Of a stretch of DNA of 64,000 bases, positions 4,444-52,720 are shown one piece after another. The notes below the pieces were generated by a model that saw nothing but the letters and a program-made list of their open reading frames with translations, had not been told where the DNA came from and did not search any database. The stretch lies in the NCBI GenBank assembly GCA_041651015.1, contig JBAZKA010000002.1, positions 6,163 through 70,162 of the forward strand, given 5' to 3'. Origin of the DNA: Patescibacteria group bacterium (lineage in GTDB: Bacteria > Patescibacteriota > Patescibacteriia > Magasanikbacterales > GWA2-37-8). The translations under genes were made by a program, and so were the position numbers. Numbering within the stretch: the first letter of the stretch is position 1; each line of letters opens with the position of its first letter.

Positions 4444-4896
4444 TTAACGCCCTTTGATAATATACATGGCCACGCCCGCGGCCACCGACACATTCAAACT
4501 GTTTTTGATCCCGCGCATGGGCAATTCCACGCTCGCGTCGCAATATTTTAGCAAAGATTTGGTCACGCCGGTCTTTTCATTGCCGACCACAAGGGCAAGC
4601 GGAAACTTTGGTGTCCAATCAAAAATATTTATACTGGTTTTGGTTTGTTCCAAAGCGATTATATTATACCCCTTTTCACGCAAATCCCCAAGCAAGCGCC
4701 ATGTTTGTTTCACATACTCCCAAGGCACGGATTTTTCCGCGCCCAAAGACACTTTGTCCAATTGCGTATGCGGAGGACGGGCCGTATATCCGCAAAGATA
4801 GATTTTATCCACGCCCGCGCCATCCGCGGTCCGAAACATAGCGCCGACATTGTGGGCGCTGCGGATATCGGGCAAAATTAAAACAAATTTTTCCAT
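4444..4896 (-). CDS. SpoU/TrmH-family RNA 2'-O-methyltransferase (TrmL-like)
   Basis: 150 aa; SpoU motifs (PDIRSAHNVGAMFRTADGAG, ALVVGNEKTGV, LPMRGIKNSLNVSVAAGV). Confidence 0.8.
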   Translation of the reverse strand: MEKFVLILPDIRSAHNVGAMFRTADGAGVDKIYLCGYTARPPHTQLDKVSLGAEKSVPWEYVKQTWRLLGDLREKGYNIIALEQTKTSINIFDWTPKFPLALVVGNEKTGVTKSLLKYCDASVELPMRGIKNSLNVSVAAGVAMYIIKGR

Positions 4897-5299
4897 ATTA
4901 TTTAATCAAATATTATCACAACAAACCAGATAAATCAAAAACCACCCTATTTTGTAAAAAACCCGAGAAATTTATCTCGGGCTTTCAGGGTTCAATGGAA
5001 TCCGTACTCGACAAATATATTTTGTCGAAAATTCACGCTTTTGTCAACATAACCGTGAATAGATGTGATTTTTTCGGAATTATTCACGGTTATCAAGCTA
5101 CAACAAATAGCCATAATTACGTATCCGAAGCTCGCGCGCGAGATTTTCAAACGTATTGCCCTCCTCCATAATATCTGATATATTTAATTCATTATACCCC
5201 TCGGGGTATAACCCAAATTCATTAAAAATTTTATCATATTTTAGCGGTTTTTACCACTAGTTATGATAAAGGTAGTTCAGCGACATCGCTTCGCTCGTC

Positions 5300-5560
5300 G
5301 CTGAATGAGCCGCGCTTACAGCGTTGTCGTCTCGTCGCTTCGCGACGTCGCCGAACAACGCTTATACAAAATGTCCGTCGCCCGCTTGCGCGGCTCCGGC
5401 CACATTGTATAAGCGCGGCTCGTTATATGAAATACATGTTTTCCTTTTGGGCTTCGCCCAGCTCTTAAAAAGAATTCAATTTTGTTTTTTTATTAATTAA
5501 TGAGGGGGAATAAGGTGTTTTTTCCGCTGTCGCTACAAAAACGATTTATTTATAAGGGGA
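5300..5560 (+). repeat. island repeat copy 1 (long hairpin gagccgcgcttaca...tgtataagcgcggctc + conserved core gttatatgaNatacatgttttcc...gctcttaaaaagaat...)
   Basis: core about 70-80% identical to 13197-13320 and to the reverse complement of 15955-16090. Confidence 0.7.
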
Positions 5561-5599
5561 AAACGAATACAATAACTTTGCCTAACACGAAAATAGTTT

Positions 5600-7408
5600 A
5601 TGCCAAAAATTAAGGATATACCAAAAATTGATCGCCCAAGAGAAAGGTTTCTGAAAAAAGGAGCTGACGCACTTTCAAAAAGTGATCTTTTGGCAATTCT
5701 TTTAGGTAGTGGAATTAAGGGGAAAAATGTTAGACAACTTTCTGAAAGTATTATTAAAAAATTTGGTAAAAACTTTTTGAACATAACCGTTGATGATCTT
5801 TTAGAAATTTCAGGGATTGGACAAGCAAAAGCCCTCCAAATAGCGTCCGCAATATCATTAGTAAAAAGATTTTACGACGAAAACAAAACTAATGAAATCG
5901 TTATAAAAAATTCTCAAGATGTTTTATCCCTTACTTACGATTTAAGAGATAAGAAAAAAGAACATTTAGTTTGCCTTTATTTAAACGCACGAAATACTTT
6001 ACTAAAAAAAGAAATTGTCAGTATCGGTCTTTTAGATAAGGCATTACTGCATCCGAGAGAAATTTTTTATCCTGCAACCGAATTAAACGCCGCCAGCGTT
6101 ATTTTGGTTCACAATCACCCTTCGGGCGATTCTTCACCAAGCGAAAAAGACAACCAAATCATTGAAAAAATCGTACAAGCTGGTGAAATAATGGGAATAC
6201 CAGTTGTTGATTTCATTATCATTTCTGAAAATAATCATTACAGTTTCTACGAAAAATTAAATAAGCAAAAAGCAAGCGTTGATTATGTTGCAGACGGAAT
6301 ACAAGGCACACTTTTTGCCGTACTTGAAGTTGAAAAACCCGCCTACGAGGTAACGGCTATACAAAAAATTGATAAACCCTATTTCCACTTTTCAAAAACT
6401 CAAAATGATACCTTCCAATTGCAGAATAGAAGATATTTGGGCAATAAATACAAACTGCTCGGATTTATTGAAGATATTGTTGCTGAAAAATGCAACGGAA
6501 TAAAATCATTTTGTGATATTTTTGCGGGTACAGGTGTTGTCGGAGAAAGATTTAATAAGCCAGAAATAAAAATTATTTCGAATGACTTCCTTTTTACAAA
6601 TTATGTTTGCCTAAAAGCGTTCCTTGGTACAAATTCACCTATTCAGAAAATTGCAGATAAAATTGATATTCTCAATAGTTTAAAAACTGATCGAGATAAT
6701 TATTTTTCAAAATACTTTGGTAATACCTATTTTTCGCTAGAAAATGCTAGAAAGATTGGAGCAATCCGTGAAGAAATAGAAAAAATGGCCGAAACGGAAG
6801 AAGAAAAAAAAATTCTCATTTGTTCCTTAATTTATGCAGTTGATAAGGTTGCAAATACAGTCGGACATTATGACGCTTTTCGTAAAGATTTAGATATGCT
6901 ACAGCCATTAAAACTTTTGGCTCCCGATATTGACTACTTAAATAATGGAAATAACGAAATTTACAAAGAAGACGCAAACATCTTGATTAGAAAAATTGCT
7001 TGCGACGTTTTGTACATAGATCCGCCCTATAACTCGCGCCAATATTCAGATGCCTATCATTTACTGGAAAATTTAGCTGAATGGAAAAAACCTAATGTTG
7101 AAGGAATGGCAAAAAAAATGGACCGCTCTCACATAAAAAGTTCCTATTGTCTTAAAAATGCTACACAAGCATTTGAGGACTTGATTAAAAATGCTAATTG
7201 TAAACATATATTATTGTCTTATAATAACACTAGGGATTCAAAGGATGGACGTTCAAATGCCAGAATAAACGATAATGATATTTTACGGATATTAAAAAAT
7301 AAAGGTGAAGTAGAAATTTTTGAAAGAGATTACAAGGCCTTCACTGCTGGAAAAAGCAACGGCGACGGAAACGTCGAAAGAATTTTTTATTGTAATATAA
7401 CAAAATAA
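5600..7408 (+). CDS. fusion protein: N-terminal RadC-like JAB/MPN domain + C-terminal Dam-like (D12, alpha-class) N6-adenine DNA methyltransferase
   Basis: 602 aa. N-terminal half has helix-hairpin-helix and the RadC HNHPSG(x)SPS(x)D motif. C-terminal half has RYLGNKYKLL, FxGxG (DIFAGTGVVG) and DPPYNSRQY in Dam-family order. Confidence 0.75.
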   Translation: MPKIKDIPKIDRPRERFLKKGADALSKSDLLAILLGSGIKGKNVRQLSESIIKKFGKNFLNITVDDLLEISGIGQAKALQIASAISLVKRFYDENKTNEIVIKNSQDVLSLTYDLRDKKKEHLVCLYLNARNTLLKKEIVSIGLLDKALLHPREIFYPATELNAASVILVHNHPSGDSSPSEKDNQIIEKIVQAGEIMGIPVVDFIIISENNHYSFYEKLNKQKASVDYVADGIQGTLFAVLEVEKPAYEVTAIQKIDKPYFHFSKTQNDTFQLQNRRYLGNKYKLLGFIEDIVAEKCNGIKSFCDIFAGTGVVGERFNKPEIKIISNDFLFTNYVCLKAFLGTNSPIQKIADKIDILNSLKTDRDNYFSKYFGNTYFSLENARKIGAIREEIEKMAETEEEKKILICSLIYAVDKVANTVGHYDAFRKDLDMLQPLKLLAPDIDYLNNGNNEIYKEDANILIRKIACDVLYIDPPYNSRQYSDAYHLLENLAEWKKPNVEGMAKKMDRSHIKSSYCLKNATQAFEDLIKNANCKHILLSYNNTRDSKDGRSNARINDNDILRILKNKGEVEIFERDYKAFTAGKSNGDGNVERIFYCNITK

Positions 7409-7410
7409 CT

Positions 7411-9228
7411 ATGAAAAAACCTTGGTCAATTACTACAACACTAAGAAATCCCGAAAGATTGAGAGATTTTTTAATTGTTTTAAGACAACTTGAAAATTGC
7501 AAGTGGGATTTAGAAAGTCAGAAAAAATATCAAATTCTTTTGATAAAAGAGAGGGTTTACGGCTATGGAAGCAATCAATTTTACAATGGATTATCTCAAA
7601 AACAAATTGATTTAATTGACGATCAAACAAAAACAATTACCTTTGAACAAGCCGAAACGATTTTTAATGCTAAAAACTACGAAGATCCTTCAACGAGAGG
7701 GCGGCAATCAATAAATCCTCTTAAAAAATTCGGACTCGCTGTTATTAAAGACGAAAAAATCTGTATAACCAGCTTAGGAAAACTATTTTTAAAAGACGAT
7801 TTTGATCTTGGTGAAATATTTTTTAGAAGTTTTATTAAGTGGCAAATCCCAAATCCTGATAGCGATGACTATAAACTTGAAGATGGATACAATATAGAAC
7901 CATTTGTCGGCGTGCTTCATCTTATTCGGGAAGTAAATGAAAAATCTAGAAAATCAGGAGAAAAAGAAAAAGGAATAAGCAAGGAAGAATTTTCCTTATT
8001 TTGTCCAACCCTTGTTGATTATGAAGATATAGAGCTTTATTCTGAAAAAATTATTGCCCTACGGAAAAAACTTAAAGACAAAACGAAGCAAGAACAAAAA
8101 ACAATCCGCGACAAATATAAAAAAACTTTCGCACGGGAATTTCTTGGAAAATCAAATACTACAGAAATTCAAAAACTCTTAAAAAATCTCAAAGACTACG
8201 GAGATAACGCTATCAGATACTTCCGCCTAACTCGCTATATTTATATACGGGGTGGTGGTTTTTATATTGATCTGGAGCCGAGAAGATCAGTTGAAATCAA
8301 TGCTTTGTTGGATTTTGATAATGCTAAGTCGAAGACCTTTGAGACAAAAGAAAAATACTTAGACTATATTTCTGACATCTCGGAGCCAAAACTACCGTGG
8401 GAAACTAAAGAAAAGCTTACTGAAATTGCCATAAAATTACTTGAAGAAATAAAGTTGTTTGAACGAGAAACAAGGGTAACACCAAAAGTATTTTTGGATT
8501 ATCAAAAATTGGATGGAGATGGATTAAAAAAATTTATCAATGAACTGCGAAACTACCGAAGAGAGCTGCAGGACAAACAAAATCACCAAAAATCACAAGA
8601 TACGGAACAAATTAAATCCTACATTCAAGAACTTGAAAATATTTTTGAATCTGAAGATCGGCCAATACTGCTTGAAAAGTTGTCATCGCTAGGTCTGAAT
8701 GCCCTAAACGATGCATTAAAAATACAACCAAACTATCCAGTTGGTGATGATAACGAGCCAACATTTACGGCACCGGCAAACACGCCAGATATAGAGTGTT
8801 TTTATCAAGGTTTTAATGCTATCTGTGAGGTAACAATGCTAACGGGAAGAGATCAATGGTACAACGAGGGGCAACCAGTGATGAGACATTTAAGAGATTT
8901 TGAGAATAAACATAGCGATAAAACTACATATTGCTTGTTTATTGCTCCCCAAATGCACAGAGATACTATAAACACCTTTTGGACAGCCATAAAATACGAA
9001 TACGAGGGCAACAAACAAAGAATAATCCCTTTATCAATAAACAATTTCGTGTCTCTTTTAAAAATACTCGTACAAATAAAAACCGAGAATAAATTTTTAA
9101 AGCACAGCGAAATTGCTCGCCTATACGATGAAATAATTAATTCATCAAATTCTTTTAGCGATTCCGATGGTTGGCTTAGAAATATTCCCACCGCCATTTC
9201 GTCATGGCAAGAAAGCCTAAATTTTTAA
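7411..9228 (+). CDS. putative Type IIS restriction endonuclease, AlwI-family-like
   Basis: 605 aa. N-terminal W-x-I-T-T-x-R-N-P-E-R pattern recalled from RE_AlwI-family proteins. Located 2 bp after one methyltransferase and overlapping the next. Family assignment is from memory, not a search. Confidence 0.5.
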   Translation: MKKPWSITTTLRNPERLRDFLIVLRQLENCKWDLESQKKYQILLIKERVYGYGSNQFYNGLSQKQIDLIDDQTKTITFEQAETIFNAKNYEDPSTRGRQSINPLKKFGLAVIKDEKICITSLGKLFLKDDFDLGEIFFRSFIKWQIPNPDSDDYKLEDGYNIEPFVGVLHLIREVNEKSRKSGEKEKGISKEEFSLFCPTLVDYEDIELYSEKIIALRKKLKDKTKQEQKTIRDKYKKTFAREFLGKSNTTEIQKLLKNLKDYGDNAIRYFRLTRYIYIRGGGFYIDLEPRRSVEINALLDFDNAKSKTFETKEKYLDYISDISEPKLPWETKEKLTEIAIKLLEEIKLFERETRVTPKVFLDYQKLDGDGLKKFINELRNYRRELQDKQNHQKSQDTEQIKSYIQELENIFESEDRPILLEKLSSLGLNALNDALKIQPNYPVGDDNEPTFTAPANTPDIECFYQGFNAICEVTMLTGRDQWYNEGQPVMRHLRDFENKHSDKTTYCLFIAPQMHRDTINTFWTAIKYEYEGNKQRIIPLSINNFVSLLKILVQIKTENKFLKHSEIARLYDEIINSSNSFSDSDGWLRNIPTAISSWQESLNF

Positions 9229-9230
9229 AT

Positions 9231-10007
9231 ATGGGTATGAAAAAAAATATTATCTACAACGACGATTGCATAAACATACTTAACACGAAGATTGATAAGA
9301 GTTCTATTGATCTTGTCTTTGCCGACCCTCCGTACAATTTATCTGGCAATGGTCTAAAATGGCAGGGCAGCAAAACTGGTGGAGATTGGTATATGGTGAA
9401 TGAGCATTGGGACAAAATGACTGCCCCTGAATATCTACAATTTACCAGAAAATGGATCGGGGCTTGCCATAAAATTTTAAAAGACACAGGATCAATTTAT
9501 ATTGCATGTAGTTACCACAATATCGGTGAGGTAATGATTGTTTTGAAACAATTAGATTTCAAGATAAATAATATTATTACTTGGTACAAAACAAACGCCA
9601 TGCCGAATATGACAAGGAGGGTGTTTACTCACGCAACAGAATTTGTAATTTGGGCTGTTAAAGGTAGTGGATGGACTTTTAATTATAAAGATCTTAAAGA
9701 AATAAACCCTGAAAAACAAAAAGACGGAACCGAAAAACAAATGCGTGATTTTTGGGAATTACCCTTAGTTCAAGGCAAGGAAAGAATACGCGGAAAAGAC
9801 GGCAAAGCGTTACATCCAACTCAAAAACCAGAAGAAATGTTAAAAAGAATCATTTTAGCCAGTTCCAATGAAGGCGATACTGTTTTAGATCCATTTTTAG
9901 GAAGCGGGACAACTGCCGTTGTGGCTAAAAAATATGGTCGCAAGTGGATTGGGATTGAAAAAGAAAAGCAATATTTTAAGATTGCTGAAGAGCGAATAAA
10001 AAAATAA
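9231..10007 (+). CDS. beta-class N4-cytosine/N6-adenine DNA methyltransferase
   Basis: DPPY (FADPPYN) N-terminal and FxGxG (DPFLGSGTT) C-terminal, which is the beta-class order; ATG 9231 chosen to avoid overlap with upstream stop at 9228. Confidence 0.8.
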   Translation: MGMKKNIIYNDDCINILNTKIDKSSIDLVFADPPYNLSGNGLKWQGSKTGGDWYMVNEHWDKMTAPEYLQFTRKWIGACHKILKDTGSIYIACSYHNIGEVMIVLKQLDFKINNIITWYKTNAMPNMTRRVFTHATEFVIWAVKGSGWTFNYKDLKEINPEKQKDGTEKQMRDFWELPLVQGKERIRGKDGKALHPTQKPEEMLKRIILASSNEGDTVLDPFLGSGTTAVVAKKYGRKWIGIEKEKQYFKIAEERIKK

Positions 10008-10011
10008 ATTC

Positions 10012-11154
10012 ATGACCAGCACAAGAGAACAAAATGGCGGTTACTATGCAATTAAGGGTTTTACCTATCAATTTGATAAGTCTCTTTTAGAAATCCTTAA
10101 GAACCAAACGCAGGATGTCGAACTTGAACAAATTCAAGACATTGGGCTAAGCGATTACTATATTCAAGTTAAATACAAAGAAACTCAAAATTACGCCGAT
10201 TCAAAAATCAAACCAGCAGTGTTGCAATTATTAAAATGTTTTCTGGATGATAAAAATAAAAAATTCAAACTATATTGTTATTTTAAAGACAAATCGTCAC
10301 AGACAATCGCTTTAACCGATACCAAGCTTGATGAAATATTAGGTTCAGATAGTAGTGCTTACACGCAAAGTGATAAACAAGCTTTTGTGGGAAATTTCAC
10401 TTTGGAATTTTCAAGTAATTTTGAGAAGCAGTTTAGTGATCTTATAAAACTTATAAAAACCTGTTTTAGTTTAAAGACAGAGGAAGAGGCAACAACATAT
10501 CATGCAATATTTAAAGCAAATTTATTTGGTATAGCCATTAAAAAGAATCCAAAACAAAGAACAATAAATTATAAAAAACTAAAAGAAGTCGCTAACAGCA
10601 ACGAAAAAATAATATTTGATATAGCTTATTGTAAATATCTAAAGATGGAACGATATTTGAAGTATGTAAAAAAAGAGTATTTCACTTTCAAAAAAGTAAA
10701 TACTCCGAGCAAAGAAAGACTTTTTGTTGTTGAGATGGATAATTCAACAAGGGATGGAGATGCCATTCAAATCATAACAAATATAAAAAATCGATACTTC
10801 AAAAAGGATACATCCCCAGCTCCTTATGTTTGTTTATTTGGGATAGACAACGAAAGGATTGCTAATCTCAAACAAAAACTTTGGGACAAGGGGTTGATAT
10901 TTTCTGACGGCACACATTTTGATAGGGATAAATTTAGAATGACTGATCTTATTGCAGACACACATAATAACAATTGTGGTATAACATTTAAGCTTTTGTC
11001 ACTTGAACAATTACCTCTCTTTTTCAAAAAGAAACGACCCGATGAGACTTTTGTATTTTTAACATCTGGCGATGGAGAATGGCGAACAAAAGTTAAAGAA
11101 TTCAAAGAGTTTTATATTGGTCGCACAAAAAATATTACTAAAATAATTCAATAA
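10012..11154 (+). CDS. DUF4297-like (Cap4-type PD-(D/E)xK-like) putative nuclease, partner of HerA ATPase
   Basis: 380 aa. N-terminal GFTYQ motif and D...(I)QVK motif resemble REase-fold QxK variants. Immediately precedes HerA-like gene (4 bp gap). Confidence 0.45.
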   Translation: MTSTREQNGGYYAIKGFTYQFDKSLLEILKNQTQDVELEQIQDIGLSDYYIQVKYKETQNYADSKIKPAVLQLLKCFLDDKNKKFKLYCYFKDKSSQTIALTDTKLDEILGSDSSAYTQSDKQAFVGNFTLEFSSNFEKQFSDLIKLIKTCFSLKTEEEATTYHAIFKANLFGIAIKKNPKQRTINYKKLKEVANSNEKIIFDIAYCKYLKMERYLKYVKKEYFTFKKVNTPSKERLFVVEMDNSTRDGDAIQIITNIKNRYFKKDTSPAPYVCLFGIDNERIANLKQKLWDKGLIFSDGTHFDRDKFRMTDLIADTHNNNCGITFKLLSLEQLPLFFKKKRPDETFVFLTSGDGEWRTKVKEFKEFYIGRTKNITKIIQ

Positions 11155-11158
11155 ATTT

Positions 11159-12892
11159 ATGCCGGAAGTAAAAATTTCAGCTGAAGTTATCTCTGTCTTT
11201 CCAAACAAGGTTAGAATAGCAGTAAGCGATATTGAATCGTTTAAAATAGCTGGGGAACTCTTGGCGGTCGGCTCATATCTCAAAATTTTTGACAACAACG
11301 ACTGTTTTATTGTTGCAATAATAGAAAATTTCTCTATCGTGATGTCTGATCCAGATAAGGAAGGAAAAAGAGATAAGTCCTATATAGTCGAGGCTGTGCC
11401 TCTCGGATTTATCAATTCGAGTGGCGAATTTATTCGAGGTGGCAATAATATTGCAATTCCTCCAAAAACAGTCGAACCAGCTAAAAAAGAAGACATACAA
11501 AAAATATATGACGACATCAAAGATAAAGATCGATTTTGTTTCTCAAAATTAGCTCAAGACACCTCGATAACTGTTCCTGTTGATGGAAATAAATTTTTCA
11601 ATAAACACATCGCCATAGTTGGGTCTACAGGATCCGGTAAATCACATGCTTTGGCAAAAATAATTCAAGAGGCTATAAAAGAAAAAAATATTGGTTATAA
11701 TGGTTTAAATAATTCTCATATAATTATTTTCGACATTCACGATGAATATAAAACTGCGTTTTCTTCAGCCTCATACATTAACGTCGACCAATTAGTGCTC
11801 CCATATTGGCTTATGAACTCGGACGAACTCGAAGAATTGTTTTTAGAATCAGGTGATTTTAATAATTATAATCAAAGCTCAATCCTAAATAGGCTCGTCA
11901 CCGAGAATAAAAAATTAAATAACCCTGGCCAAAAAATCGAGTACGGTAGTCCAGTTGTATTCAAAATAAATGAAATTTTAAACTGTCTAGTTAACTTAAG
12001 CAAAGAGACAAAAAATTATAAAAATCAAGACGAAATTTCTATAAAGGGGGCCTCTAAAACTTTTAGTGGGGATAGTGAAAAATATAAATGTTATTTTGAA
12101 AAAATATTAGAATTTGAAGAACCGAAAGCGCAAAACTTTTCAAAAGGTAGTTTTGCGGATGGAAGTTTGGATAAATTTATCTCTAGATTAAAAAATAAAT
12201 ATTCTGACGCAAGGCTAAAATTTTTATTTGATCCTGCTGTAGAAAGTTTAAAATTTGAAGAAATTCTTCGTCAATTTATTTCTTACAAAACTGGCAAAGA
12301 ATCCAATGTCACAATAATTGATTTAAGTGGTGTCCCCTTTGAAGTATTAAGCATTACAGTATCCCTTATTTCAAGAATTTTGTTTGATTATGCTTATTTT
12401 TATAAAAAAACAAATACTTCATCAATTAACGAAACTCCATTATTGGTGGTATACGAAGAGGCGCATAAATATGTTCCAAAAAATCACTTGGCAAAATTCA
12501 ACGCATCGAGGTTTGCAATAGAGAGAATTGCAAAAGAAGGTAGAAAATATGGAATAACGTCTATAATTGTAAGCCAGAGGCCATCTGAAGTATCTGAAAC
12601 TATATTTTCACAGTGTAGCAATTTCATAGCGATGAGACTAACCAACCCAGAAGATCAAAATTATGTTCGTCGTCTTTTACCAGATACTCTTGGACCACTA
12701 ACAGAATCTTTACCAATACTCCAAGCTGGGGAGGCTCTATTAATTGGCGATTCTGTAGTTATGCCATCACTTGTAAAAATTGACCCATGCACAAATTCAC
12801 CATCATCAAATGATATTAAATATCTTGAAGAGTGGAAGAAAGAATGGAAAGATGTCGCGTTTGATCCAATAATTAAGAAGTGGCAAAAGTAA
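11159..12892 (+). CDS. HerA/FtsK-like (DUF87) ATPase
   Basis: 577 aa. Walker A IAIVGSTGSGKSH, Walker B LLVVYEEAHKY, SIIVSQRPSEV motif; N-terminal HAS-barrel-like region. Confidence 0.75.
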   Translation: MPEVKISAEVISVFPNKVRIAVSDIESFKIAGELLAVGSYLKIFDNNDCFIVAIIENFSIVMSDPDKEGKRDKSYIVEAVPLGFINSSGEFIRGGNNIAIPPKTVEPAKKEDIQKIYDDIKDKDRFCFSKLAQDTSITVPVDGNKFFNKHIAIVGSTGSGKSHALAKIIQEAIKEKNIGYNGLNNSHIIIFDIHDEYKTAFSSASYINVDQLVLPYWLMNSDELEELFLESGDFNNYNQSSILNRLVTENKKLNNPGQKIEYGSPVVFKINEILNCLVNLSKETKNYKNQDEISIKGASKTFSGDSEKYKCYFEKILEFEEPKAQNFSKGSFADGSLDKFISRLKNKYSDARLKFLFDPAVESLKFEEILRQFISYKTGKESNVTIIDLSGVPFEVLSITVSLISRILFDYAYFYKKTNTSSINETPLLVVYEEAHKYVPKNHLAKFNASRFAIERIAKEGRKYGITSIIVSQRPSEVSETIFSQCSNFIAMRLTNPEDQNYVRRLLPDTLGPLTESLPILQAGEALLIGDSVVMPSLVKIDPCTNSPSSNDIKYLEEWKKEWKDVAFDPIIKKWQK

Positions 12893-12959
12893 ATAAAACA
12901 AACAGACAAAAATTCCCTCCCCTTAAACCCCTTCCTTTTTGACTGTTTGTTTGAGAAGA

Positions 12960-13330
12960 AAGAAATAAGGAGTTTTGAATTTTGGGCATTCACCCCTGAC
13001 CCCTCTGCCCAAAATCCAAAACGGAAAAAGAAATTTTAAAATTTTTTAAAACAATTCCGACTGCTGTCGGAAAAAAGAAAAGGAATACATCAGCTAACAA
13101 CGAGTATCCGGTTACGGCTTTCCCCGAAAGCCTCCACCCAAATTTTTCTTTCGCTTCGCTTCAGAAAAACTTCGGATACTCGTAACGTTATATGACATAC
13201 ATGTTTTCCGTTGGGGCTGCCGCCCCGCTCTTAAAAAGAATCCGATTTCGTTTTTTGGTGATTGAGCGAGGGGAAATATAGTGTTTTCTTCGCTACGCTA
13301 CGAAAACCGAATTATTTAATAAAAAATATT
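12960..13330 (+). repeat. island repeat copy 2 (inverted partial core 12960-13030, hairpin aacgagtatccg...cggatactcgt 13088-13197, direct core 13197-13320)
   Basis: aligned by eye to copies 1 and 3. Confidence 0.7.
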
Positions 13331-14137
13331 ATGGCTGACAACTACTACGTTTACGTCTACATTGATCCTCGGAATTACGAGGAATTTTACTATGGAAAAG
13401 GCAAGGGCAACAGAAAAGTAGCGCACCTATATGATGAAAAAGACACAGAAAAAACTAAAATTATAAAAGCCATTCAAAAAGAGGGGCTTGAACCTATAAT
13501 TAAAGTGGTTGCAAAAGGATTATCAGAAAGTGATGCATTTTTAATCGAAAAAACTTTAATTTGGAAACTTGGAAAAAATTTATCAAATATTTCATCGGGT
13601 CATTTTTCAGATAAATTCAGGCCACATAATAGTTACCACCTTAATCTGAATAGTTTTGATTTTGCAAACGGAATTTTTTATGTAAATGTTGGCGAAGGCG
13701 AAACTCGGGCATGGAGAGATTGCCAAAATTTTGGCTTCTTGGCGGCTGGGCAAGGCACAAAGTGGAGCGAACCACTAAAAACATTGAATATCGGTGATAT
13801 TGTCGTGGCATACTTAAAACGAAAGGGATATGTCGGAATTGGTAGGGTAGTCGAAAAAGCCAAGCGGGTACTGGATTTTAAATTTGACGGAAAATCGCTA
13901 AAAACCCAAACTTTAGACAGCACCGATCTCTTTAAAAATTCAGATAATGAGAATACAGAATTTTTGGTCAAAATCGATTGGATTAAAAGCGTGCCGACAA
14001 ATGAAGCGAAGTGGAAAAATAATTCGGGACTATTTACAACACAATTAATTAAGGCATCACTTGAAAACCAGGTAAAAACAATTAATTTTTTAGAAAAAGA
14101 ATTCCATGTTAATTTTACGGACATAATGAACGATTGA
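13331..14137 (+). CDS. GIY-YIG nuclease fused to PUA-like (EVE-type) domain; putative modification-dependent endonuclease
   Basis: N-terminal YVYVYIDP...FYYGKGKGNRK is a GIY-YIG-type motif. C-terminal W-RDCQNFGFL...IGDIVVAYL...GYVGIGRVV resembles the EVE/PUA beta-barrel pattern. Start moved from 13262 to ATG 13331. Confidence 0.55.
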   Translation: MADNYYVYVYIDPRNYEEFYYGKGKGNRKVAHLYDEKDTEKTKIIKAIQKEGLEPIIKVVAKGLSESDAFLIEKTLIWKLGKNLSNISSGHFSDKFRPHNSYHLNLNSFDFANGIFYVNVGEGETRAWRDCQNFGFLAAGQGTKWSEPLKTLNIGDIVVAYLKRKGYVGIGRVVEKAKRVLDFKFDGKSLKTQTLDSTDLFKNSDNENTEFLVKIDWIKSVPTNEAKWKNNSGLFTTQLIKASLENQVKTINFLEKEFHVNFTDIMND

Positions 14138-14265
14138 TATATTTTATAAAATTATTAATTCCGCTAATTTTCAATTCATACTCAAATATACATATTAGTA
14201 AATTTGATTATTGGATTAATTGAAGCCCTTGTTGATAACTTTTTGTTAATAGTATAAAAATGGCT

Positions 14266-14290
14266 AATTTTAGCCATTTTTATAACTACT
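14266..14290. promoter_or_regulatory. palindromic operator-like site AAAAATGGCTAAttttTTAGCCATTTT
   Basis: near-perfect inverted repeat directly upstream of the -35; related GGCTAA..TTAGCC motifs at 15894-15917, 27680-27695 and 27807-27829. Confidence 0.45.
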
Positions 14291-14299
14291 TGACATAAT

Positions 14300-14329
14300 C
14301 AAAAAAATCATTTATAATATCATTATTCC
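14300..14329 (+). promoter_or_regulatory. near-consensus sigma70 promoter (TTGACA-18-TATAAT)
   Basis: TTGACA 14300-14305, TATAAT 14324-14329, about 40 bp upstream of ATG 14371. Confidence 0.6.
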
Positions 14330-14370
14330 TACACAAGTAGTACTTCACACTAAATTAATTAATTTTTCTT

Positions 14371-15096
14371 ATGAATCAAGAAAATAAACAAATAACTCCA
14401 CCATATTTGAGCATGGCAAAACTTGCCAAATTAGTTGAAATCGTGAAATCAAGAAACATGACCCAGGTTAATCCTACTCATTTTATCACTCAAGGATTCA
14501 GTCAGGCAGATGCATACGTTGCAATAAACTCATTGCGCTTCCTGGGTCTAGTAGATGACAACAATAATACCACCGATTTATTTCGTAAATTTCAATTAGT
14601 AGGAGAACAGGGCAAAAAAGGCATGGAGGAAGTAATAAAATCTGCATACTCTAAATTATTTGAATCATTCGCTAATGGGAATCCATACGATGAAGGAAAT
14701 GAAGATAATTTAATAAATGATTTCATGATTCAATATGCTATATCAAAAAGAATCGCGGGACCAGCATCAAAAGCATTTGTTTGGTTGTGCGAACAAGCTG
14801 GACTCAGAGAACAATCCATAAAAATACAAGAAAGAAAAATCCGTGTTACATCAACAAAAAAATTGGCAGATAAAAGTAACAACAAAAACAAACCGCAAGC
14901 TGACACAAAAAATGAAAATCCTACTGGAGTAGCTCTCACTCTTAATGGTGGTATTATCATATCAATACCAACAACGGACATAAGAACATCACAAGCAATT
15001 GCATTGGGCGAACTTAAAAGCGCCGTCGAGGAACTTAATAAGTTTGCATTAAAATATATTGTGGAAACCGAAACTAAAAATAATGATGCTGTATAG
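14371..15096 (+). CDS. hypothetical protein (helical N-terminal domain, Lys/Asn-rich linker, small C-terminal domain)
   Basis: 241 aa with no catalytic motif recognised; first gene of promoter-driven pair. Confidence 0.55.
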   Translation: MNQENKQITPPYLSMAKLAKLVEIVKSRNMTQVNPTHFITQGFSQADAYVAINSLRFLGLVDDNNNTTDLFRKFQLVGEQGKKGMEEVIKSAYSKLFESFANGNPYDEGNEDNLINDFMIQYAISKRIAGPASKAFVWLCEQAGLREQSIKIQERKIRVTSTKKLADKSNNKNKPQADTKNENPTGVALTLNGGIIISIPTTDIRTSQAIALGELKSAVEELNKFALKYIVETETKNNDAV

Positions 15097-15111
15097 CAAA
15101 CTTACCATACT

Positions 15112-15732
15112 ATGAATATCTATCTTGACGAATCATACAATCTCCAAAAAAATAAAGGGAAAATGTTTATAAGCATCAACGGGTTTGCTGTCCTTGATGA
15201 TAAAGTACTCCGCAAACGCTGGAAAATCGTTCGAAAGGATTATTTAAAAATGAAACGACGTATTCACGCGACTGATTCACGCTTTGAGGATCTCCGTGGA
15301 AAAAGTATAAAAATGCTTGGACGTCACGATGTAAATATTCTTTCGATATTCCAACTGACGCAAGAAATATCTCATGACTACTTTGATACAAATGGCATAA
15401 GATTTGATACCGTGTACACTTCTCTTCTTAAAAAACTATTCACTGATTTATCTCTTGGTGAATACAAGCAAGCACGCATAGTTATGGACGCGAGAAAGCA
15501 TAAAGGCGGGATACTTGGGGAAATCATTTTCCAAAAAACTATCGAGGGATTTCTTTCTGATAAATTCCCTTCAACACGCTGTGTGTTAAAACTTACGCCA
15601 TCCTACGCAGACATTCTGATTGAACTTGCAGACTTTGTGTCCAACACATTTTACAAAGAATATCAGCAAGATTCGGAACACATATTCAAGAAACTTGGAT
15701 TTCGGTTGATACAAATCAAAAACCCGCTATAA
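15112..15732 (+). CDS. DUF3800-like protein
   Basis: 206 aa. N-terminal MNIYLDESYN matches the conserved N-terminal D-E motif recalled for DUF3800; sits 15 bp after the upstream gene. Confidence 0.55.
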   Translation: MNIYLDESYNLQKNKGKMFISINGFAVLDDKVLRKRWKIVRKDYLKMKRRIHATDSRFEDLRGKSIKMLGRHDVNILSIFQLTQEISHDYFDTNGIRFDTVYTSLLKKLFTDLSLGEYKQARIVMDARKHKGGILGEIIFQKTIEGFLSDKFPSTRCVLKLTPSYADILIELADFVSNTFYKEYQQDSEHIFKKLGFRLIQIKNPL

Positions 15733-15871
15733 AAGCGGATTTCCGTAAGAGCCTTTTGGGAATGTCTTTGCTTCAACGAGATGTTCCTGAAAGAGAACGC
15801 CCTCCACAAAGCTTTACCCTAAGGACTTATCTTCTAAATACATTATAACATGAATAGCCGGTTTAGTCAAT
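15720..15871 (-). ncRNA. candidate small antisense/convergent transcript (promoter TTGACT-17-TATAAT at 15871-15843 on minus strand; terminator hairpin ccgct-tttat-agcgg + T-run at about 15745-15720)
   Basis: promoter and intrinsic terminator read directly on the minus strand; no ORF; transcript ends at the stop codon of the DUF3800-like gene. Confidence 0.3.
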
Positions 15872-15949
15872 GTACTGTGGATAATTATTAACATTTTGGC
15901 TAATTCAAGCCAAAATTATAGTACACTGGAGACAAAAATTAATGTTTTT

Positions 15950-16165
15950 GGCCGCCGGGCATTCACCCCTTTTGTTCCCCTCTGCCCTGCGCCCAAAAGC
16001 GACAAAAAACGAAATCGGATTCTTTTTAAGAGCCATTTGAATTGACGAAATAACGGAAAACATGTACATCATATAACAGCGTGTATGCGGCTACGGTTCC
16101 CCTATCGGCGAACCTCCGCCCATATCGCTAAGGCGACATCGCATACACGCGAACGTTGTACGAAA
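15950..16165 (-). repeat. island repeat copy 3 (inverted orientation; core 15955-16090, hairpin cgcgtgtatgcg...cgcatacacgc 16090-16160)
   Basis: reverse complement aligns with copies 1 and 2 (gttatatgatgtacatgttttccgtt...gctcttaaaaagaatccgatttcgtttttt). Confidence 0.7.
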
Positions 16166-16715
16166 TAAATTATTTACTAGCCCCACCAGCATTGAAGGGA
16201 GGTAACAATGAAATGGTGGCGAAAAGTGGTAGAAATCTATCACAACATGTTCAATGTGAAGTTCGCTGTCCTTTCGGCCGCCTTTAATGGTCTGGTCGCA
16301 ATGATGGTGAACATGGCACACAGCCCCGAGCAGTACCTGATGGCAGGACTTGCACAGGCGGCCTCAAGCTTCCTGTCAACCGGAGTCACGGCAAGAGTGG
16401 TTCAACACTTTTCGCCCATTCGGTCCGCGCCAGTCTCGTACTTCTTCGGAAGCTTGGTGCCTGCAACCATGACGTTTGTGATGAGCTTGGCAGTTCACCT
16501 TTGGAACAACACTCCAGAGGTTCTGGCAAGTTGTGTGGCTCCGACGGTCATCAGCTACACGACCAGCTACATCACAAACTACATCACCCGGCGTGGCTAC
16601 ATGCTGCCCGGAAACTACAAGGAGGTGCAAAAATGATCCCGCGTCAGCCTCCGAACAGGACTGACGCGGGACACTCACTCAATGAATGTGGGGCTAGTAA
16701 ATAATTTAGCCGATA
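16166..16715 (+). mobile_element. 550-bp unit bounded by perfect 19-bp inverted repeats (AAATTATTTACTAGCCCCA / TGGGGCTAGTAAATAATTT) carrying one GC-rich ORF
   Basis: IRs at 16166-16184 and 16697-16715; interior GC content clearly higher than flanks; 11-bp-stem hairpin after the ORF. Confidence 0.5.
16208..16636 (+). CDS. hypothetical hydrophobic protein (GC-rich, probably foreign)
   Basis: 142 aa; strong SD GGGAGGT 6 nt upstream of ATG; several hydrophobic segments. Confidence 0.5.
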   Translation: MKWWRKVVEIYHNMFNVKFAVLSAAFNGLVAMMVNMAHSPEQYLMAGLAQAASSFLSTGVTARVVQHFSPIRSAPVSYFFGSLVPATMTFVMSLAVHLWNNTPEVLASCVAPTVISYTTSYITNYITRRGYMLPGNYKEVQK

Positions 16716-16864
16716 TGCGGTTCAAGAAAAAAGTATAAATATTTTCAGCGGATATTTTTTTCTCTCACCCATATTTCGCACACATCTAAATAATATGGAA
16801 TGTGCGAAACATCGCATATCGGCATACGTTATCTGAAATTAAATTTCTGGACTATAATAAAATT

Positions 16865-17443
16865 ATGGATTTACGCATTTACAACGAGGCTAAGCAATTT
16901 GTTTTTGACTCTTTCAATAAAGCCGAAAAACCTTCGCAGATAAAACATTTTGTCAAAACAGTGCATTGGTTAAAAATTCTGTCGCCTAATGCCGATGAGG
17001 CGTTGCTCGTAGCGGCGATTGCTCACGATATCGAAAGGGCTTTTCGACAAAAAGATGTTTTAGAAAAAAAGACTTCAGCGGGTTTTACAAGTATAGAATT
17101 TTATCGTCTGCATGAAGAGCGTGGCGCTGAAATTATTGCTGAATTTCTAAAACATAAAAACGTGGATGACGGCTTTGTTGAAAGAGTTAAAAAGTTGGTT
17201 TCTCGACATGAAGAAGGCGGTGATGATGATCAAAACCTACTAAAAGATGCTGATAGCGTTAGCTTCTTTGAAACCAACGTTCCATTTTTTCTCGATAAAA
17301 AATCATTGGAAATTGGCAAGGAAAAAGTTAGACTGAAATTTGATTGGATGTATAATAGAATAACATCCGAAAAAGCGAAACAAATTGCTCAGCCTATGTA
17401 TGAAAAAGCAATTAGTGATTTAAACAAGGGTCCGGAAATTTAA
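16865..17443 (+). CDS. HD-domain phosphohydrolase
   Basis: H...HD motif (AAIAHDIER) and downstream D (LLKDAD); start placed at ATG 16865 (MDLRIYN). Confidence 0.6.
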   Translation: MDLRIYNEAKQFVFDSFNKAEKPSQIKHFVKTVHWLKILSPNADEALLVAAIAHDIERAFRQKDVLEKKTSAGFTSIEFYRLHEERGAEIIAEFLKHKNVDDGFVERVKKLVSRHEEGGDDDQNLLKDADSVSFFETNVPFFLDKKSLEIGKEKVRLKFDWMYNRITSEKAKQIAQPMYEKAISDLNKGPEI

Positions 17444-17543
17444 CATCAGATAACACGCGATATCCAAAATTCGCCTTCGCTTCGCTACGGAAAACATCGC
17501 ATACACGCGTACGTTATTGTAAAATTAGTTTAATTCAAACCAT

Positions 17544-17885
17544 ATGAAAAAAATAAACTGGACTCGCGTTATTTTCATCGTCGGTGTTATCGCCCTTTTA
17601 ATTGGCGCCATTGACCCCTTGGAGGGTTCGGTGATAATTGTAGCCGGTAGTGCGCTCATCGCGCTCGCGACATATTTAGCGCGCGACCGATACTGGAAAA
17701 TATTTTTCGCGTCTTTTGTATTGATTATAATGGGCGTGGCTCTTATGTTTTATATGTCGTCTCTCGGCGGTTTTGGCGGAGAATCTACTCTGTCTTGGGG
17801 GTGGGCCGCGCTTATGATTCCCTATCCGATCGGATGGCTGATGACCATAATTACGTTAATCGTCAAAGCTGTTAAAAAACAGTAA
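17544..17885 (+). CDS. small integral membrane protein, unknown function
   Basis: 113 aa, 3-4 TM helices. Confidence 0.45.
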   Translation: MKKINWTRVIFIVGVIALLIGAIDPLEGSVIIVAGSALIALATYLARDRYWKIFFASFVLIIMGVALMFYMSSLGGFGGESTLSWGWAALMIPYPIGWLMTIITLIVKAVKKQ

Positions 17886-17956
17886 GTAATAAATAAAATT
17901 GCCAACTGATAAAATATCCGATACACTTAATTAACATTAAACATTAACTTAAAAAT

Positions 17957-18532
17957 ATGCCAACACTCAAGGGGACCAAAACCGAGCAAAATTTGCTCAA
18001 ATCATTTGCCGGGGAGTGCCAAGCCCGCACGCGCTATGATTTTTTCGCCAGCGTGGCCAAAAAAGAAGGCTTGGAACAAATCAGCGCCATGTTTGCCGAA
18101 ACCGCGCTTAATGAAAAAGAACACGCCAAAAGATTTTTTAAATTTTTGGAAGGCGGAGCCGTGGAAATTACGGCCGGATATCCGGCGGGAAAAATCGGCG
18201 ATACTTTGAACAATCTCAAAGCCTCGGCTGATGGCGAAAATGAAGAATGGACAAAATTATATCCGGAGTTTGCTCAAGTCGCCGAAGAAGAAGGTTTCGC
18301 GGAAATTGCCTTAGCCTATCGCGCCATTGCCAAAGTGGAACAGGCGCACGAAAATCGTTACCGAAAATTATACGAGAGCTTAGAAGCGGGTAAAGTATTT
18401 GTGAAAGACGGCAAGATGATTTGGAAATGCCGGAACTGCGGATATTTACACGAAGGCGATAAAGCGCCGGATGTGTGTCCGTCGTGTCTCCACCCGCAAG
18501 CTTACTTTGAACTTTGGTGCGAGAATTACTAA
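17957..18532 (+). CDS. rbr: rubrerythrin
   Basis: ferritin-like ExxH motifs plus C-terminal rubredoxin-like CxxC...CxxC (CRNCGY...CPSC). Confidence 0.85.
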
Positions 18533-31217: not shown

Positions 31218-33572
31218 ATGACCAGAACTTACAAACAAAGAAGCGCGCCGCATGACGAAGGAGGATTGGGCCCGAAAATTAGTCACGGCCTTTTATCCAT
31301 TTTACTTTTTGTCGTGGCCGGGCTCTCCACTTTGAGTTTTTTTGAAATGGCCGGCGTGGCGGGCAAATTCATTGATTCGTTACTCGCCATCACTTTTGGA
31401 CAAGTGCGCTATGTTTTTCCGGTAATACTTATTGTCATCGCCATACTCCTTATCAAGGACATGGAATATCATTACCGCTCCACACACATTTTGGGGGCAG
31501 TGATGTTTTTCTTGTCCTTTAATGGCATTGTCCACATTTATCAACCAGCCACGGAAATGGTTGACCAAGCCCTGCAAGGATACGGTGGCGGTTTAGTCGG
31601 GTTAATTCTCGGCTGGCCATTGGGAAATTACGTGGGCTTTTGGGGCGGGCTGATTATTTTAATCGGCGTACTTTTAATTTCTATAATATTTTTGTTTAAC
31701 ACTTCCCTCGCCGAACTGGTGGAGCTCAACAAAAAAGTTTTACTCGCCTTCGGTTGGATTGGCAAAAAAATTATTGACTTCTTTGGCACGTTCAAAACCG
31801 AAGAAAAATTACAGATGCGCATAGAGGGCGACTATGAGCCGGTCAAAAAATCCCAACCCGAGCCCGAAGAGGAAGAAGAGATTGAAGAAGAGCCGGAAGT
31901 CAAACCCGTGTTTGCCAAAAAAATTATTAAGGAGACAAAACCGACGGAAAAAGATGAACCCGAAGAAGAAACTATTGCTCGACCCACCACTTTGGACATC
32001 AATTACAAATGGCCGCCTTTGGAAATTTTATACAGTTCCAAAACCAAGCCGACTTCGGGCGACATCAACAGCAACGCCGCCATGATTCATGACACGCTAG
32101 CCAATTTTGGCATTGAGACCGAGATGGGCGAAATTCGCGTCGGCCCGACCGTCACGCAATATTCCCTCAAACCGGCCAAAGGCATCAAATTAACGCGTAT
32201 CACCGGCCTCTCTAATGACTTGGCGTTGGCTTTGGCCGCGCATCCGATCCGCATTGAAGCGCCTATTCCGGGCAAATCCCTCGTTGGCATTGAAGTGCCA
32301 AATGAAAAAGTGGCCATGGTGACACTGCGCGAACTTTTGGAATCACAAGAATACAAAACCAGAAAAAATAACGCCGCTATCGCGCTCGGCAAAGACGTGG
32401 CCGGCAAAGTTTGGTTTGCGGATTTACCAAAGATGCCACATTTACTTATCGCCGGTACGACCGGTTCGGGAAAAACTGTTTGTATCAACACAATTATTTT
32501 AAGTTTGCTTTATCAAAATTCTCCGGAGACTTTGCGCTTTATTATGGTAGACCCCAAGCGCGTAGAACTGACTTTGTACAACGGCATCCCGCATTTACTT
32601 ACGCCGGTTATCACTGACCCGGCCAAAACCGTGGCCGCGCTTAAATGGTGTATCAATGAAATGGAACGTCGCTTTGACACACTCGCTGCTATCGGTTGCC
32701 GCGACATACTTTCTTACAACGAAAAATCCAAAGACAAACTTCCTTACATTGTTTTCGTGATTGATGAACTCGCCGACCTCATGGCCATGGCCGCCTCAGA
32801 AGTGGAAGCGGGCATCATCCGCATCGCGCAAATGGCGCGCGCCGTGGGCATCCATCTGGTCGTCGCCACTCAGCGTCCGAGCGTGGAAGTTATCACCGGT
32901 CTGATGAAAGCCAACATTCCGGCGCGCATTGCTTTTTCCGTGGCTTCAATCATTGACTCGCGCACAATTTTGGATTGTCCGGGCGCGGAAAAATTACTCG
33001 GACGAGGCGACATGCTTTTCCTCACTTCTGACATGTCCAAACCCAAACGCATCCAGGGCGCTTTTGTGTCCGAAGAAGAAATGAAACGCGTAGTGGATTG
33101 CATCAAGGGCGACGAACCGCCGGTTTATGATGAGACGATAGTTTCCAAAACATCTTCAGCCGGAGGCACAATGAATATGTTTGGCGGTCCGAGCGATGAT
33201 CGCGATCAGCTTTTTGACGAGGCTAAAGCCACAGTTATTGAGTCGGGCAAGGCTTCTGCCTCACTCCTTCAACGCCGTATGAAAGTAGGCTATGCACGAG
33301 CTGCCCGATTGCTTGACGAATTAGAGGAAGCTGGTATAGTAGGACCGGCGGATGGAGCCAAACCGCGCGAGGTTTTCACCGAACATTTTATGGCTGATGC
33401 CGAGGAAGAAATGCCGGTTGAAGAAACCACTATGGACGCCGGCGGCACGGTGTTTGACGATAAAAATGATGAAGTTGATAAAGTTGATGAAAGTGATGAA
33501 CTTGATAAAAATCCGGACGAAAAAAATCCTGAAGAAATAACCAAAACGGATGAGCCGGAGCAGTACGCTTGA
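31218..33572 (+). CDS. ftsK: DNA translocase FtsK/SpoIIIE
   Basis: N-terminal TM segments, Pro/Glu-rich linker, Walker A GTTGSGKT, C-terminal gamma-domain-like winged helix. Confidence 0.9.
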   Translation: MTRTYKQRSAPHDEGGLGPKISHGLLSILLFVVAGLSTLSFFEMAGVAGKFIDSLLAITFGQVRYVFPVILIVIAILLIKDMEYHYRSTHILGAVMFFLSFNGIVHIYQPATEMVDQALQGYGGGLVGLILGWPLGNYVGFWGGLIILIGVLLISIIFLFNTSLAELVELNKKVLLAFGWIGKKIIDFFGTFKTEEKLQMRIEGDYEPVKKSQPEPEEEEEIEEEPEVKPVFAKKIIKETKPTEKDEPEEETIARPTTLDINYKWPPLEILYSSKTKPTSGDINSNAAMIHDTLANFGIETEMGEIRVGPTVTQYSLKPAKGIKLTRITGLSNDLALALAAHPIRIEAPIPGKSLVGIEVPNEKVAMVTLRELLESQEYKTRKNNAAIALGKDVAGKVWFADLPKMPHLLIAGTTGSGKTVCINTIILSLLYQNSPETLRFIMVDPKRVELTLYNGIPHLLTPVITDPAKTVAALKWCINEMERRFDTLAAIGCRDILSYNEKSKDKLPYIVFVIDELADLMAMAASEVEAGIIRIAQMARAVGIHLVVATQRPSVEVITGLMKANIPARIAFSVASIIDSRTILDCPGAEKLLGRGDMLFLTSDMSKPKRIQGAFVSEEEMKRVVDCIKGDEPPVYDETIVSKTSSAGGTMNMFGGPSDDRDQLFDEAKATVIESGKASASLLQRRMKVGYARAARLLDELEEAGIVGPADGAKPREVFTEHFMADAEEEMPVEETTMDAGGTVFDDKNDEVDKVDESDELDKNPDEKNPEEITKTDEPEQYA

Positions 33573-33616
33573 CGTATTCGTATAATTCGCATGCATTCGC
33601 ATATTTGTATCGCCTT
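33573..33616 (-). repeat. iteron-like repeat copy B (reverse orientation)
   Basis: reverse complement reads GCGAATgcatGCGAATtatACGAATa. Confidence 0.55.
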
Positions 33617-34420: not shown

Positions 34421-34430
34421 ATATTCGTAT

Positions 34431-52659: not shown

Positions 52660-52720
52660 ATCCACTTTATGAGCAGGTTATGCACAGACTTATCCACAAT
52701 GCTTTGCGTTGTGTAGGTGG

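Follow-up and report, generated by a model that had tools for sequence, protein, structure and literature searches.

The region 5113-17890 of the window (the whole 64,000-nt stretch of Patescibacteria contig JBAZKA010000002.1 analysed here) is likely to be an integron-like platform, in which a deleted tyrosine-recombinase gene and an attI-like site are followed by six co-oriented units separated by sites of folded DNA, here called H sites. The six units are one unit without an open reading frame (ORF) and five cassettes. The contig has a length of 241 kb and belongs to a Patescibacteria genome that was assembled from a metagenome. A first-pass annotation of this DNA had described three copies of a repeat, each composed of a ~100-nt GC-rich hairpin and a conserved core of ~120 bp, and had read them as an element resembling a miniature inverted-repeat transposable element (MITE) or as a recombination site used for modular acquisition. 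It is the latter proposal that our data support, based on arrays with all sites on the same strand, covarying stems, the association with a recombinase and the presence of different cassettes after the same junction in two related contigs (L103 and L104).

As single strands, the GC-rich hairpins fold far better than shuffled sequences (z = -6.9, -4.7 and -3.3 at the three annotated copies). They are indeed folded domains, but their anatomy is that of a three-way-junction DNA fold rather than of a simple hairpin. Fifteen H sequences, from which we built the covariance model R1, fold as a three-way junction with compensatory changes in 17 of the 25 pairs. Searching the window with R1 revealed five H sites, all on the plus strand: the variant site H1 (5345-5432; 26 bits), H2 (13087-13197; 103 bits, E = 4.8e-22; fold z = -4.7), which forms the three-way junction with R-box flanks, H3 (16066-16165; 100.5 bits; fold z = -3.3), H4 (16699-16838; 59.4 bits; fold z = -5.3) and H5 (17443-17523; 24.7 bits; fold z = +1.9), a decayed site that has lost the first inner hairpin and has no stable fold. 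The count of three copies therefore holds for the cores, but not for the hairpins, as H4 and H5 are two further sites, which delimit three more single-gene cassettes. Likewise, the reported inversion of the third copy applies to its core and not to its hairpin, since every hairpin domain lies on the plus strand. Conserved elements of H are the junction bases GGYTACGG, CCTCCRCCCAWAT and ACATC, and the central region is paired with a 3-nt bulge. The domain lies between the 3' end of one cassette (...ACATCATATAAC) and the 5' end of the following one (AAC|GTTnnnnGAAAT); TAAC...GTT is conserved at a level of at least 80%, and the R' boxes are partly canonical (GTTAGGC) and partly not (GTTATAT).

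A scan for the core pattern in one genome per species returned 86 stretches, nearly all from metagenome-assembled genomes of many lineages of the Patescibacteria (candidate phyla radiation, CPR). In 85 loci of other genomes, R1 identified 146 H sites with a median spacing of 814 bp, and in all 41 loci with at least two sites these are located on one strand (chance ~3e-23). The arrays reach six H sites in one 8-kb block and run across adjacent contig blocks, with 8 sites in L060 plus L039 and 10 sites beside a recombinase in L051 plus L083. Inside the arrays, 91 of 100 ORFs (at least 90 aa) are encoded on the H strand, and the arrays have a highly varied cargo, with 79 ORFs assigned to 79 Pfam families, among them Fic proteins, S-adenosylmethionine-dependent methyltransferases, NUDIX proteins, HAD hydrolases and restriction-modification (RM) enzymes. 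Besides, the arrays contain ORF-less mini-units, short hairpins of the form GTTnnnnGAC-ATCGCTTCGCTC-GTCnnnnAAC that consist of an R' box, a loop and an R'' box and have no cargo (L036 1052-1114 and 3892-3954; L030 2085-2147; L079 3849-3913; three copies in L051; window 5275-5344), and these may be empty cassettes. At L092 6192-6794, genes for an IS200/IS605-type Y1 transposase and an HNH endonuclease are found among the co-oriented genes of a recombinase-adjacent array. Many array-bearing TPA_asm genomes are labelled 'Gammaproteobacteria' (L019, L024, L026, L027, L029, L032, L034, L042, L070, L080-L082, L090 and others), and a few array contigs are binned as Micrarchaeota, Methanobacteriaceae or Bacteroidota; these odd labels are probably due to mislabelling or mis-binning, with cross-phylum transfer as the alternative.

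Pattern searches confirmed the three annotated core copies. The pattern GTTATATGANNTACATGTTTTCC (23 nt with 21 specified bases) matches at 5422-5444 (+), 13187-13209 (+) and 16055-16077 (-), and the 30-mer GCTCTTAAAAAGAATCCGATTTCGTTTTTT at 5461-5490 (+, 3 mismatches), 13227-13256 (+) and 16004-16033 (-). Neither was found elsewhere in the 64-kb window, and the expected number of matches in the shuffled window is 0.00 for GTTATATGANNTACATGTTTTCC as well as for GCTCTTAAAAAGAATCCGATTTCGTTTTTT. An inverted partial core reported at 12960-13030 is also real and belongs to a complete but degenerate inverted core at ~12966-13098. What had been described as a single core of ~120 bp is conserved, but aligning the 86 stretches resolves it into two forms: i) type A (GTTATATGA-AA-TACATG...), which is located upstream of the first gene of a module, and ii) type B (GTTATATGA-TG-TACATG...), which has a long covarying hairpin at its end and is inverted, abutting the last stop codon. 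Core pairs within one locus always comprise one type A and one inverted type B. Type A precedes the start of a same-strand ORF 70-330 nt downstream in 32 of 37 cases, and type B abuts the stop codon of an opposite-strand ORF in 38 of 40 cases. In consequence of this strict polarity, a module reads H - A> genes> <B - H. Furthermore, the ~100-nt domains that precede the two core types are reverse complements of each other, so that H is a direct repeat on one strand and only the cores are inverted. The annotated core is one widespread long version of the cassette ends, of which ~70 nt are shared; exact core matches in other genomes amount to 1-3 per genome. In a scan of viral contigs, the 21-mer GTTATATGATCTACATGTTTTCC was present only in four related IMG/VR phage contigs (L001-L004), where it stands beside a tRNA gene and both the rest of the core and a hairpin site are absent; the 30-mer had no match among the viral contigs.

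Insights into the recent history of the region come from L103 and L104, two contigs of a single sample that were retrieved by scanning metagenomes with 26 nt of the window's left flank. L103 is 97.5% identical to window 5113-5433, and the flanks of L104 are 82-85% identical. Both contigs carry an intact recombinase gene between the SpoU methylase gene and the junction to the first unit (273 aa in L104; the N-terminal 177 aa up to the contig end in L103). A tblastn search of the window for an integrase found none, and this is accounted for by a remnant: at 5169 to 5113 on the minus strand, the first 19 codons (MEEGNTFENLARELRIRNY) are identical to the N-terminus of the intact L103 gene and are then followed by unrelated DNA. 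Since the window keeps only these codons while its relatives are intact, the integrase gene was deleted in the window's lineage, which would leave the array frozen or dependent on a gene copy elsewhere. The adjacent attI-like region (5170-5277, +) contains the palindrome TTATACCCCTCGGGGTATAA (5192-5211) and the junction ...TTATGATAAAGGTA|GTT (AAAGGTA|GTT) at 5274|5275. This junction is common to the window, L103 and L104, and the units that follow it differ. In the window it is followed by the ORF-less unit U (5275-5421, +), composed of a GTTCAGCGAC...GTCGCTGAA hairpin and the variant site H1 (single-strand DNA fold z = -6.9), and then by the RM cassette; in L103 by U, a different cassette (ATTGTACGAAAT..., 119-aa ORF), an H site and a second U; and in L104 directly by a variant type A core and a methylase cassette. 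Related strains thus carry different cassettes at the same site, a positive outcome of the check that had been suggested with the first-pass annotation. Look-ups of the exact SpoU and rubrerythrin proteins either had no match or led back to just the same strain (L091, with a break at 5294).

Cassettes are also common to distant lineages, and their homology stops at the sites. With 90.6% nucleotide identity, the RM trio of cassette 1 is also found in contigs of WWE3 and Moranbacteria, where its genomic neighbourhoods are different. Both contigs keep the degenerate type B core, in WWE3 followed by an H site. In addition, cassette 1 has an internal swappable slot, which is occupied by an unknown protein and HerA in the window (9990-12895), by GmrSD in L098 (14468-16555) and by DUF6119 in L100 (14417-15937). 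Around the slot, conservation reaches 78-91% nucleotide identity in the RM trio and at the 3' end, and there is no hairpin site at the break.

An all-against-all comparison of the ORFs in the loci identified a ~270-aa tyrosine recombinase as the dominant recurrent gene family, which is present in 19 loci. In 13 of these, the gene is divergent from the cassette start (a type A core or the variant GTTnnnnGAAAT junction) at a distance of at most ~0.5 kb, and three homologues that were recruited without the core (L092, L093 and L095) also have H sites upstream on the divergent strand. Compared with structures in the PDB, the family profile has its best match in IntI4 of Vibrio cholerae (VchIntIA, 2a3v; 232.6 bits); archaeal XerA reaches 222.6 bits (4a8e) and 208.6 bits (5hxy), and XerD 144.7 bits (1a0p). 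The alignment with IntI4 consists of two stretches, in which profile positions 5-182 correspond to residues 4-184 and positions 193-272 to residues 238-317. As 10 profile positions face 53 IntI4 residues (185-237), the family is without the ~43-aa IntI-specific additional domain. This is in line with a TIGR02249 score of 223 bits, which is under the cut-off of 265. All family members have a length of ~270 aa, and the C-terminal tail is IntI-like (...YTHVxxxxxxxIKSPL). Integrons in the sense of IntegronFinder and of Messier and Roy (2001) have a tyrosine recombinase with the additional domain around patch III, and this domain is the defining feature of integron integrases (PMC9668308). More than 7,300 homologues of ~270 aa are found in databases, spread widely over the CPR lineages and named generically as 'tyrosine-type recombinase/integrase', 'site-specific tyrosine recombinase/integron integrase' or, by the Joint Genome Institute (JGI), 'XerD'.

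In the relatives, a GC-rich H is absent from the interval that separates the recombinase from the first cassette. Its place is taken by an AT-rich site that ends with TTCG(T/C)ATAA-AAACGAG-TTATATGAA, i.e. two inverted 9-bp arms and a 7-bp spacer. The attI-like cores beside recombinases in other loci have the classical form of a tyrosine-recombinase core, TTCGYATAA-N7-TTAnnnGAA (for example TTCGTATAAAAACGAGTTATATGAA), with a second TTCGYATAA ~45 nt upstream. The junction TTCGYATAA...AACGA|GTTAnnnGAAAT is located 70-230 nt from the recombinase start in L012, L050, L053, L056, L059, L068, L078 and L088, and an attI-like junction beside a divergent recombinase is also present in L092, L093, L095 and L104. 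As in integrons, an attI-type site therefore lies adjacent to and upstream of the divergently transcribed recombinase, represented in the window by the site and the 19-codon remnant. In our reading of the alignments, the arms of the attI-like site recur in the folded H stem, which is formed by the R box GTTATATGA/TCATATAAC and by helix P1 with ...TCGCATAC and has 3 nt bulging out of one strand. Elsewhere in the window, a ~45-nt motif of tandem ATTCG(T/C)ATA repeats is found just upstream of three unrelated gene starts (658-712, -; 33569-33618, +; 34379-34426, +). Its word TTCGTATAA also occurs in the attI-like arms, and the motif is possibly a promoter or an operator.

These properties of the recombinase also raise the question whether it is the single Xer protein with a housekeeping role in Patescibacteria, in the style of XerA, XerS or XerH, whose dif site would lie beside the gene. 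The cassettes would then be comparable to integrative mobile elements exploiting Xer (IMEX), stacked at dif via folded hairpin attachment sites as described for CTX phage. The nearly equal scores of archaeal XerA and IntI4, the absence of the IntI-specific insertion, the wide distribution of the homologues over CPR lineages together with their XerD naming, and the dif-type form of the attI-like site with its 9-bp inverted arms and 7-bp spacer would all be compatible with this explanation. Although it is the main rival explanation, we regard it as unlikely. The gene is deleted in the window and kept in a 97.5%-identical relative, so the recombinase seems to be dispensable. In L092, the recombinase and its array are found ~6 kb from dnaA and not at the expected terminus position. 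Besides, cassettes are located beside every recombinase examined, in arrays of up to six H sites per 8-kb block and longer ones across blocks, the sites are long covarying three-way junctions and not 28-bp duplex sites, and the SPL tail at the C-terminus is IntI-like.

The cassette ends provide a further line of evidence for an integron-like platform. For consecutive H sites, we compared the 36 nt following H(i-1) with the 36 nt preceding H(i), the latter in reverse complement, and found that each cassette has at its two ends inverted repeats of 20-26 nt that are specific to it. The mean complementarity score is 11.3 for ends of the same cassette, 4.0 for the ends across one H and 5.0 +/- 4.6 for random pairs. 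A mismatch of AA versus TG at positions 10-11 of these repeats is nearly universal; for example, GTTAGCTGA-AA-TTTTAAAATTTATTT pairs with GTTAGCTGA-TG-TTTTAAAATTTATTT. In the window, the own-end repeats of cassettes 3 and 4 are unrelated in sequence to the A and B cores: those of cassette 3 (I10; 16166-16195 and 16679-16708) are 90% complementary with an own-end score of 17, and those of cassette 4 are GTTATCTGAAATTAAATTTCTGGAC (16828-16852) and GTCCGGAAATTTAACATCAGATAAC (17430-17454). Inverted repeats of this kind would be expected if, as in integrons, the cassettes exist as circles with a junction that is opened at G|TT or immediately before it.

The same data contradict the MITE-like reading, according to which a non-autonomous transposon of ~450 bp (inverted core, hairpin and core with terminal inverted repeats) was inserted repeatedly and the 'cassettes' are nothing but the host DNA in between. 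It is true that abutting core-bearing cassettes generate the order B(rc)-H-A, a near-palindrome of ~400 nt (window 12966-13319, L077, L085). However, the inverted repeats match between the ends of one cassette, even without A and B cores, and not between the flanks of one hairpin. The genes show a strict polarity within unidirectional arrays, the ends have no target-site duplications, a transposase is missing, and the arrays are tied to a tyrosine recombinase and a defined junction. A MITE-like origin is therefore very improbable.

Conserved sequence and covarying stems directly upstream of operons would also fit a structured RNA with a regulatory effect on the defence genes downstream, be it a 5' leader or riboswitch-like motif or a small RNA. 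In an alignment of 130 H sites that was fitted to the model, 93.2% of the cells are paired, versus 64% after column shuffles and ~40% with slid partners. In the same alignment, compensatory changes affect 24 of the 25 pairs, and none of 500 shuffles reached the observed covariation. As to their composition, 91.6% are Watson-Crick, 1.5% G.T and 2.0% A.C, and the complement strand is equally well paired. As wobble pairs are as rare as other mismatches and there is no strand bias, the pairing appears to be selected at the DNA level and not at the RNA level. Moreover, Rfam 15 gave nothing in 4800-18000 at the gathering cut-off or at E <= 10 (two chance matches were located elsewhere in the window), the same fold also occurs after the 3' ends of cassettes, and the strain differences break exactly at G|TT. 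A role as regulatory RNA is thus hardly credible. That the repeats are ubiquitous intergenic elements of the repetitive extragenic palindrome (REP) or bacterial interspersed mosaic element (BIME) type, unlinked to variable DNA, is extremely improbable, as apart from their intergenic position and hairpin formation nothing fits: the five H sites and all cores are confined to 5.2-17.6 kb of the 64-kb window with none in the remaining 46 kb, and exact core matches elsewhere number 1-3 per genome. Ubiquitous REP elements had been named in the first-pass annotation as grounds against its own interpretation, and for the window this objection fails.

Several other candidates were rejected. A retron, a bridge or omega RNA and IS200/IS605 ends do not apply, as neither a reverse transcriptase nor a transposase is present, and Rfam contains no matching ribozyme. 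The flanking hairpins H2 and H3 differ in sequence, which is not compatible with a 100-bp target duplication. The core itself is not a small ORF, as the reading frames differ among the copies and it is the hairpins that covary, and there is no support for a promoter or a terminator, as sigma-70-like sites and intrinsic terminators in the A and B cores do not exceed the shuffle expectation.

Based on the anatomy of the sites, an integron-like platform could operate as follows. The recombinase would bind the attI-like core and also the stem of the folded H, in which the R box and the P1 helix would mimic this core with three bulged bases. Strand exchange would take place at or near G|TT. Cassettes would be excised as circles, with their own ends pairing and thereby lengthening the H stem, and would be reinserted at the attI-like site. 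A number of points weigh against this interpretation. The crossover point, the single-stranded substrate and the circular intermediates are features that we infer by analogy with integrons. In integrons, it is the bottom strand that recombines, folded and single-stranded, whereas in H both strands pair equally well. Canonical integrases require the IntI-specific domain for attC recombination, and it is just this domain that is absent from the recombinase family, which additionally scores close to archaeal XerA. With 7.7 kb, cassette 1 is far above the typical size of an integron cassette, and the long A and B cores with their internal covarying hairpins, in which neither a sigma-70-like promoter nor an intrinsic terminator was detected, have no explained role. 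Finally, most loci were recruited via the core 21-mer and only three are unbiased, and all data are derived from metagenome-assembled genomes with uncertain binning and taxon labels.

The genes between the repeats are those of the first-pass annotation, as confirmed by Pfam. Cassette 1 starts with a type A core (5422-5553, +; pattern matches and locus alignment), encodes a RadC-Dam methylase fusion, an AlwI endonuclease, an N4/N6 methylase, an unknown protein and a HerA ATPase (5600-12892, +) and ends with the degenerate type B core (12966-13098, -), which has homologues at the 3' ends of this cassette in L098 and L100. Cassette 2 is framed by a type A core (13187-13319, +) and a type B core (15941-16077, -), both defined by pattern matches and locus alignment, and carries genes for GIY-YIG, DUF5343 and DUF3800 proteins (13331-15732, +). 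Downstream of the DUF3800 stop codon, in the 200 nt that separate it from the type B core, a strong sigma-70-like promoter match (15842-15870, -; TTGACT, 17 nt, TATAAT, upstream TG; 11/12) points antisense into cassette 2. The remaining cassettes on the plus strand are cassette 3 (16155-16710) with a 142-aa ORF (16208-16636) and its own terminal inverted repeats, cassette 4 (16828-17454) with an HD/DUF4202 protein (16865-17443) and cassette 5 (17513-17890) with a 113-aa ORF (17544-17885). As no hairpin site follows cassette 5, the array ends there. Outside the array, the region 52631-53670 contains a 72-nt exact duplication (52721-52792 and 52925-52996) beside tRNA genes and three copies of the palindrome GTTTGTATACACTAGTGTATACAAAC (52632, 53383 and 53642).

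Integrons are defined and searched for via the IntI-specific domain and the canonical attC model, and both search criteria are predicted to miss the present system. In the literature on integrons in CPR/Patescibacteria, we found no description of such a system, but our coverage was incomplete and this is no proof of novelty. There is, in our estimation, about an even chance that Patescibacteria carry their own widespread class of integrons unseen by standard tools, with an integrase without the IntI-specific domain, three-way-junction equivalents of attC whose stems are lengthened by the cassette ends, and many cassettes on a conserved 5'/3' chassis. Such a class could connect Xer recombinases with integron integrases, as either a sister or an ancestral form, and may be the main route of defence-gene exchange across CPR lineages. 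In a recent survey, no complete integron was recognisable on 97% of the contigs with 'integron-type' recombinases, and novel attC sites were considered as a possible reason (PMC13323075). The system described here is a candidate example of these suspected sites. If active, it would represent an unrecognised gene-capture platform in Patescibacteria, which account for a large share of bacterial diversity. Restriction-modification, Fic, DUF3800 and other accessory genes would thereby move from one phylum-level lineage to another, and recombination of cassettes at folded sites would be possible without the additional domain of IntI. It would also bear on the evolution of integrons from Xer-like recombinases and on the genesis of cassettes, two questions for which the A/B chassis and the ORF-less units provide leads.

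Among known systems, archaeal XerA/dif resembles the present one in close sequence similarity (222.6 bits to 4a8e) and protein size, but XerA resolves dimers at one dif site and is not accompanied by cassette arrays. With Xer-exploiting elements (IMEX such as CTX phage, and the pdif modules of Acinetobacter plasmids) it shares an Xer-like recombinase without accessory domains and a two-arm core with a short spacer. CTX phage likewise uses a folded single-stranded hairpin that mimics a duplex site, and in pdif modules genes are likewise bounded by inverted sites. In contrast to these elements, we find long unidirectional arrays of ~100-nt structured junctions beside the recombinase gene, an apparently dispensable recombinase and no phage or plasmid backbone. 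Compared with integrons, the function is integron-like, but the recombinase of ~270 aa lacks the defining ~43-aa feature of the integrase, and the sites differ in four ways: i) they form a three-way junction with conserved junction bases and not a simple bulged hairpin, ii) the central region is paired with a 3-nt bulge and is not an unpaired spacer, iii) the complementarity runs 20-70 nt past the R box into the cassette ends with the fixed AA/TG mismatch, and iv) many cassettes, some of them multi-gene and up to 7.7 kb long, have a long conserved 5'/3' chassis. Canonical attC sites have the boxes RYYYAAC (R'') and GTTRRRY (R'), to which some R' boxes of H conform and others do not, and arrays of attC cassettes without an integrase are known as clusters of attC sites lacking integron integrases (CALINs). 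The likeness to chromosomal (sedentary) integrons comprises a divergent tyrosine recombinase beside the insertion site, mostly single-gene and co-oriented cassettes with a median spacing of 814 bp, and folded, imperfectly palindromic sites whose structure is more conserved than their sequence. It extends to the boundary AAC ... G|TT with R'' and R' boxes derived from the two ends of the same cassette, to the diverse, mostly accessory or defence-related and strain-variable cargo, and to VchIntIA as the best structural match of the recombinase.

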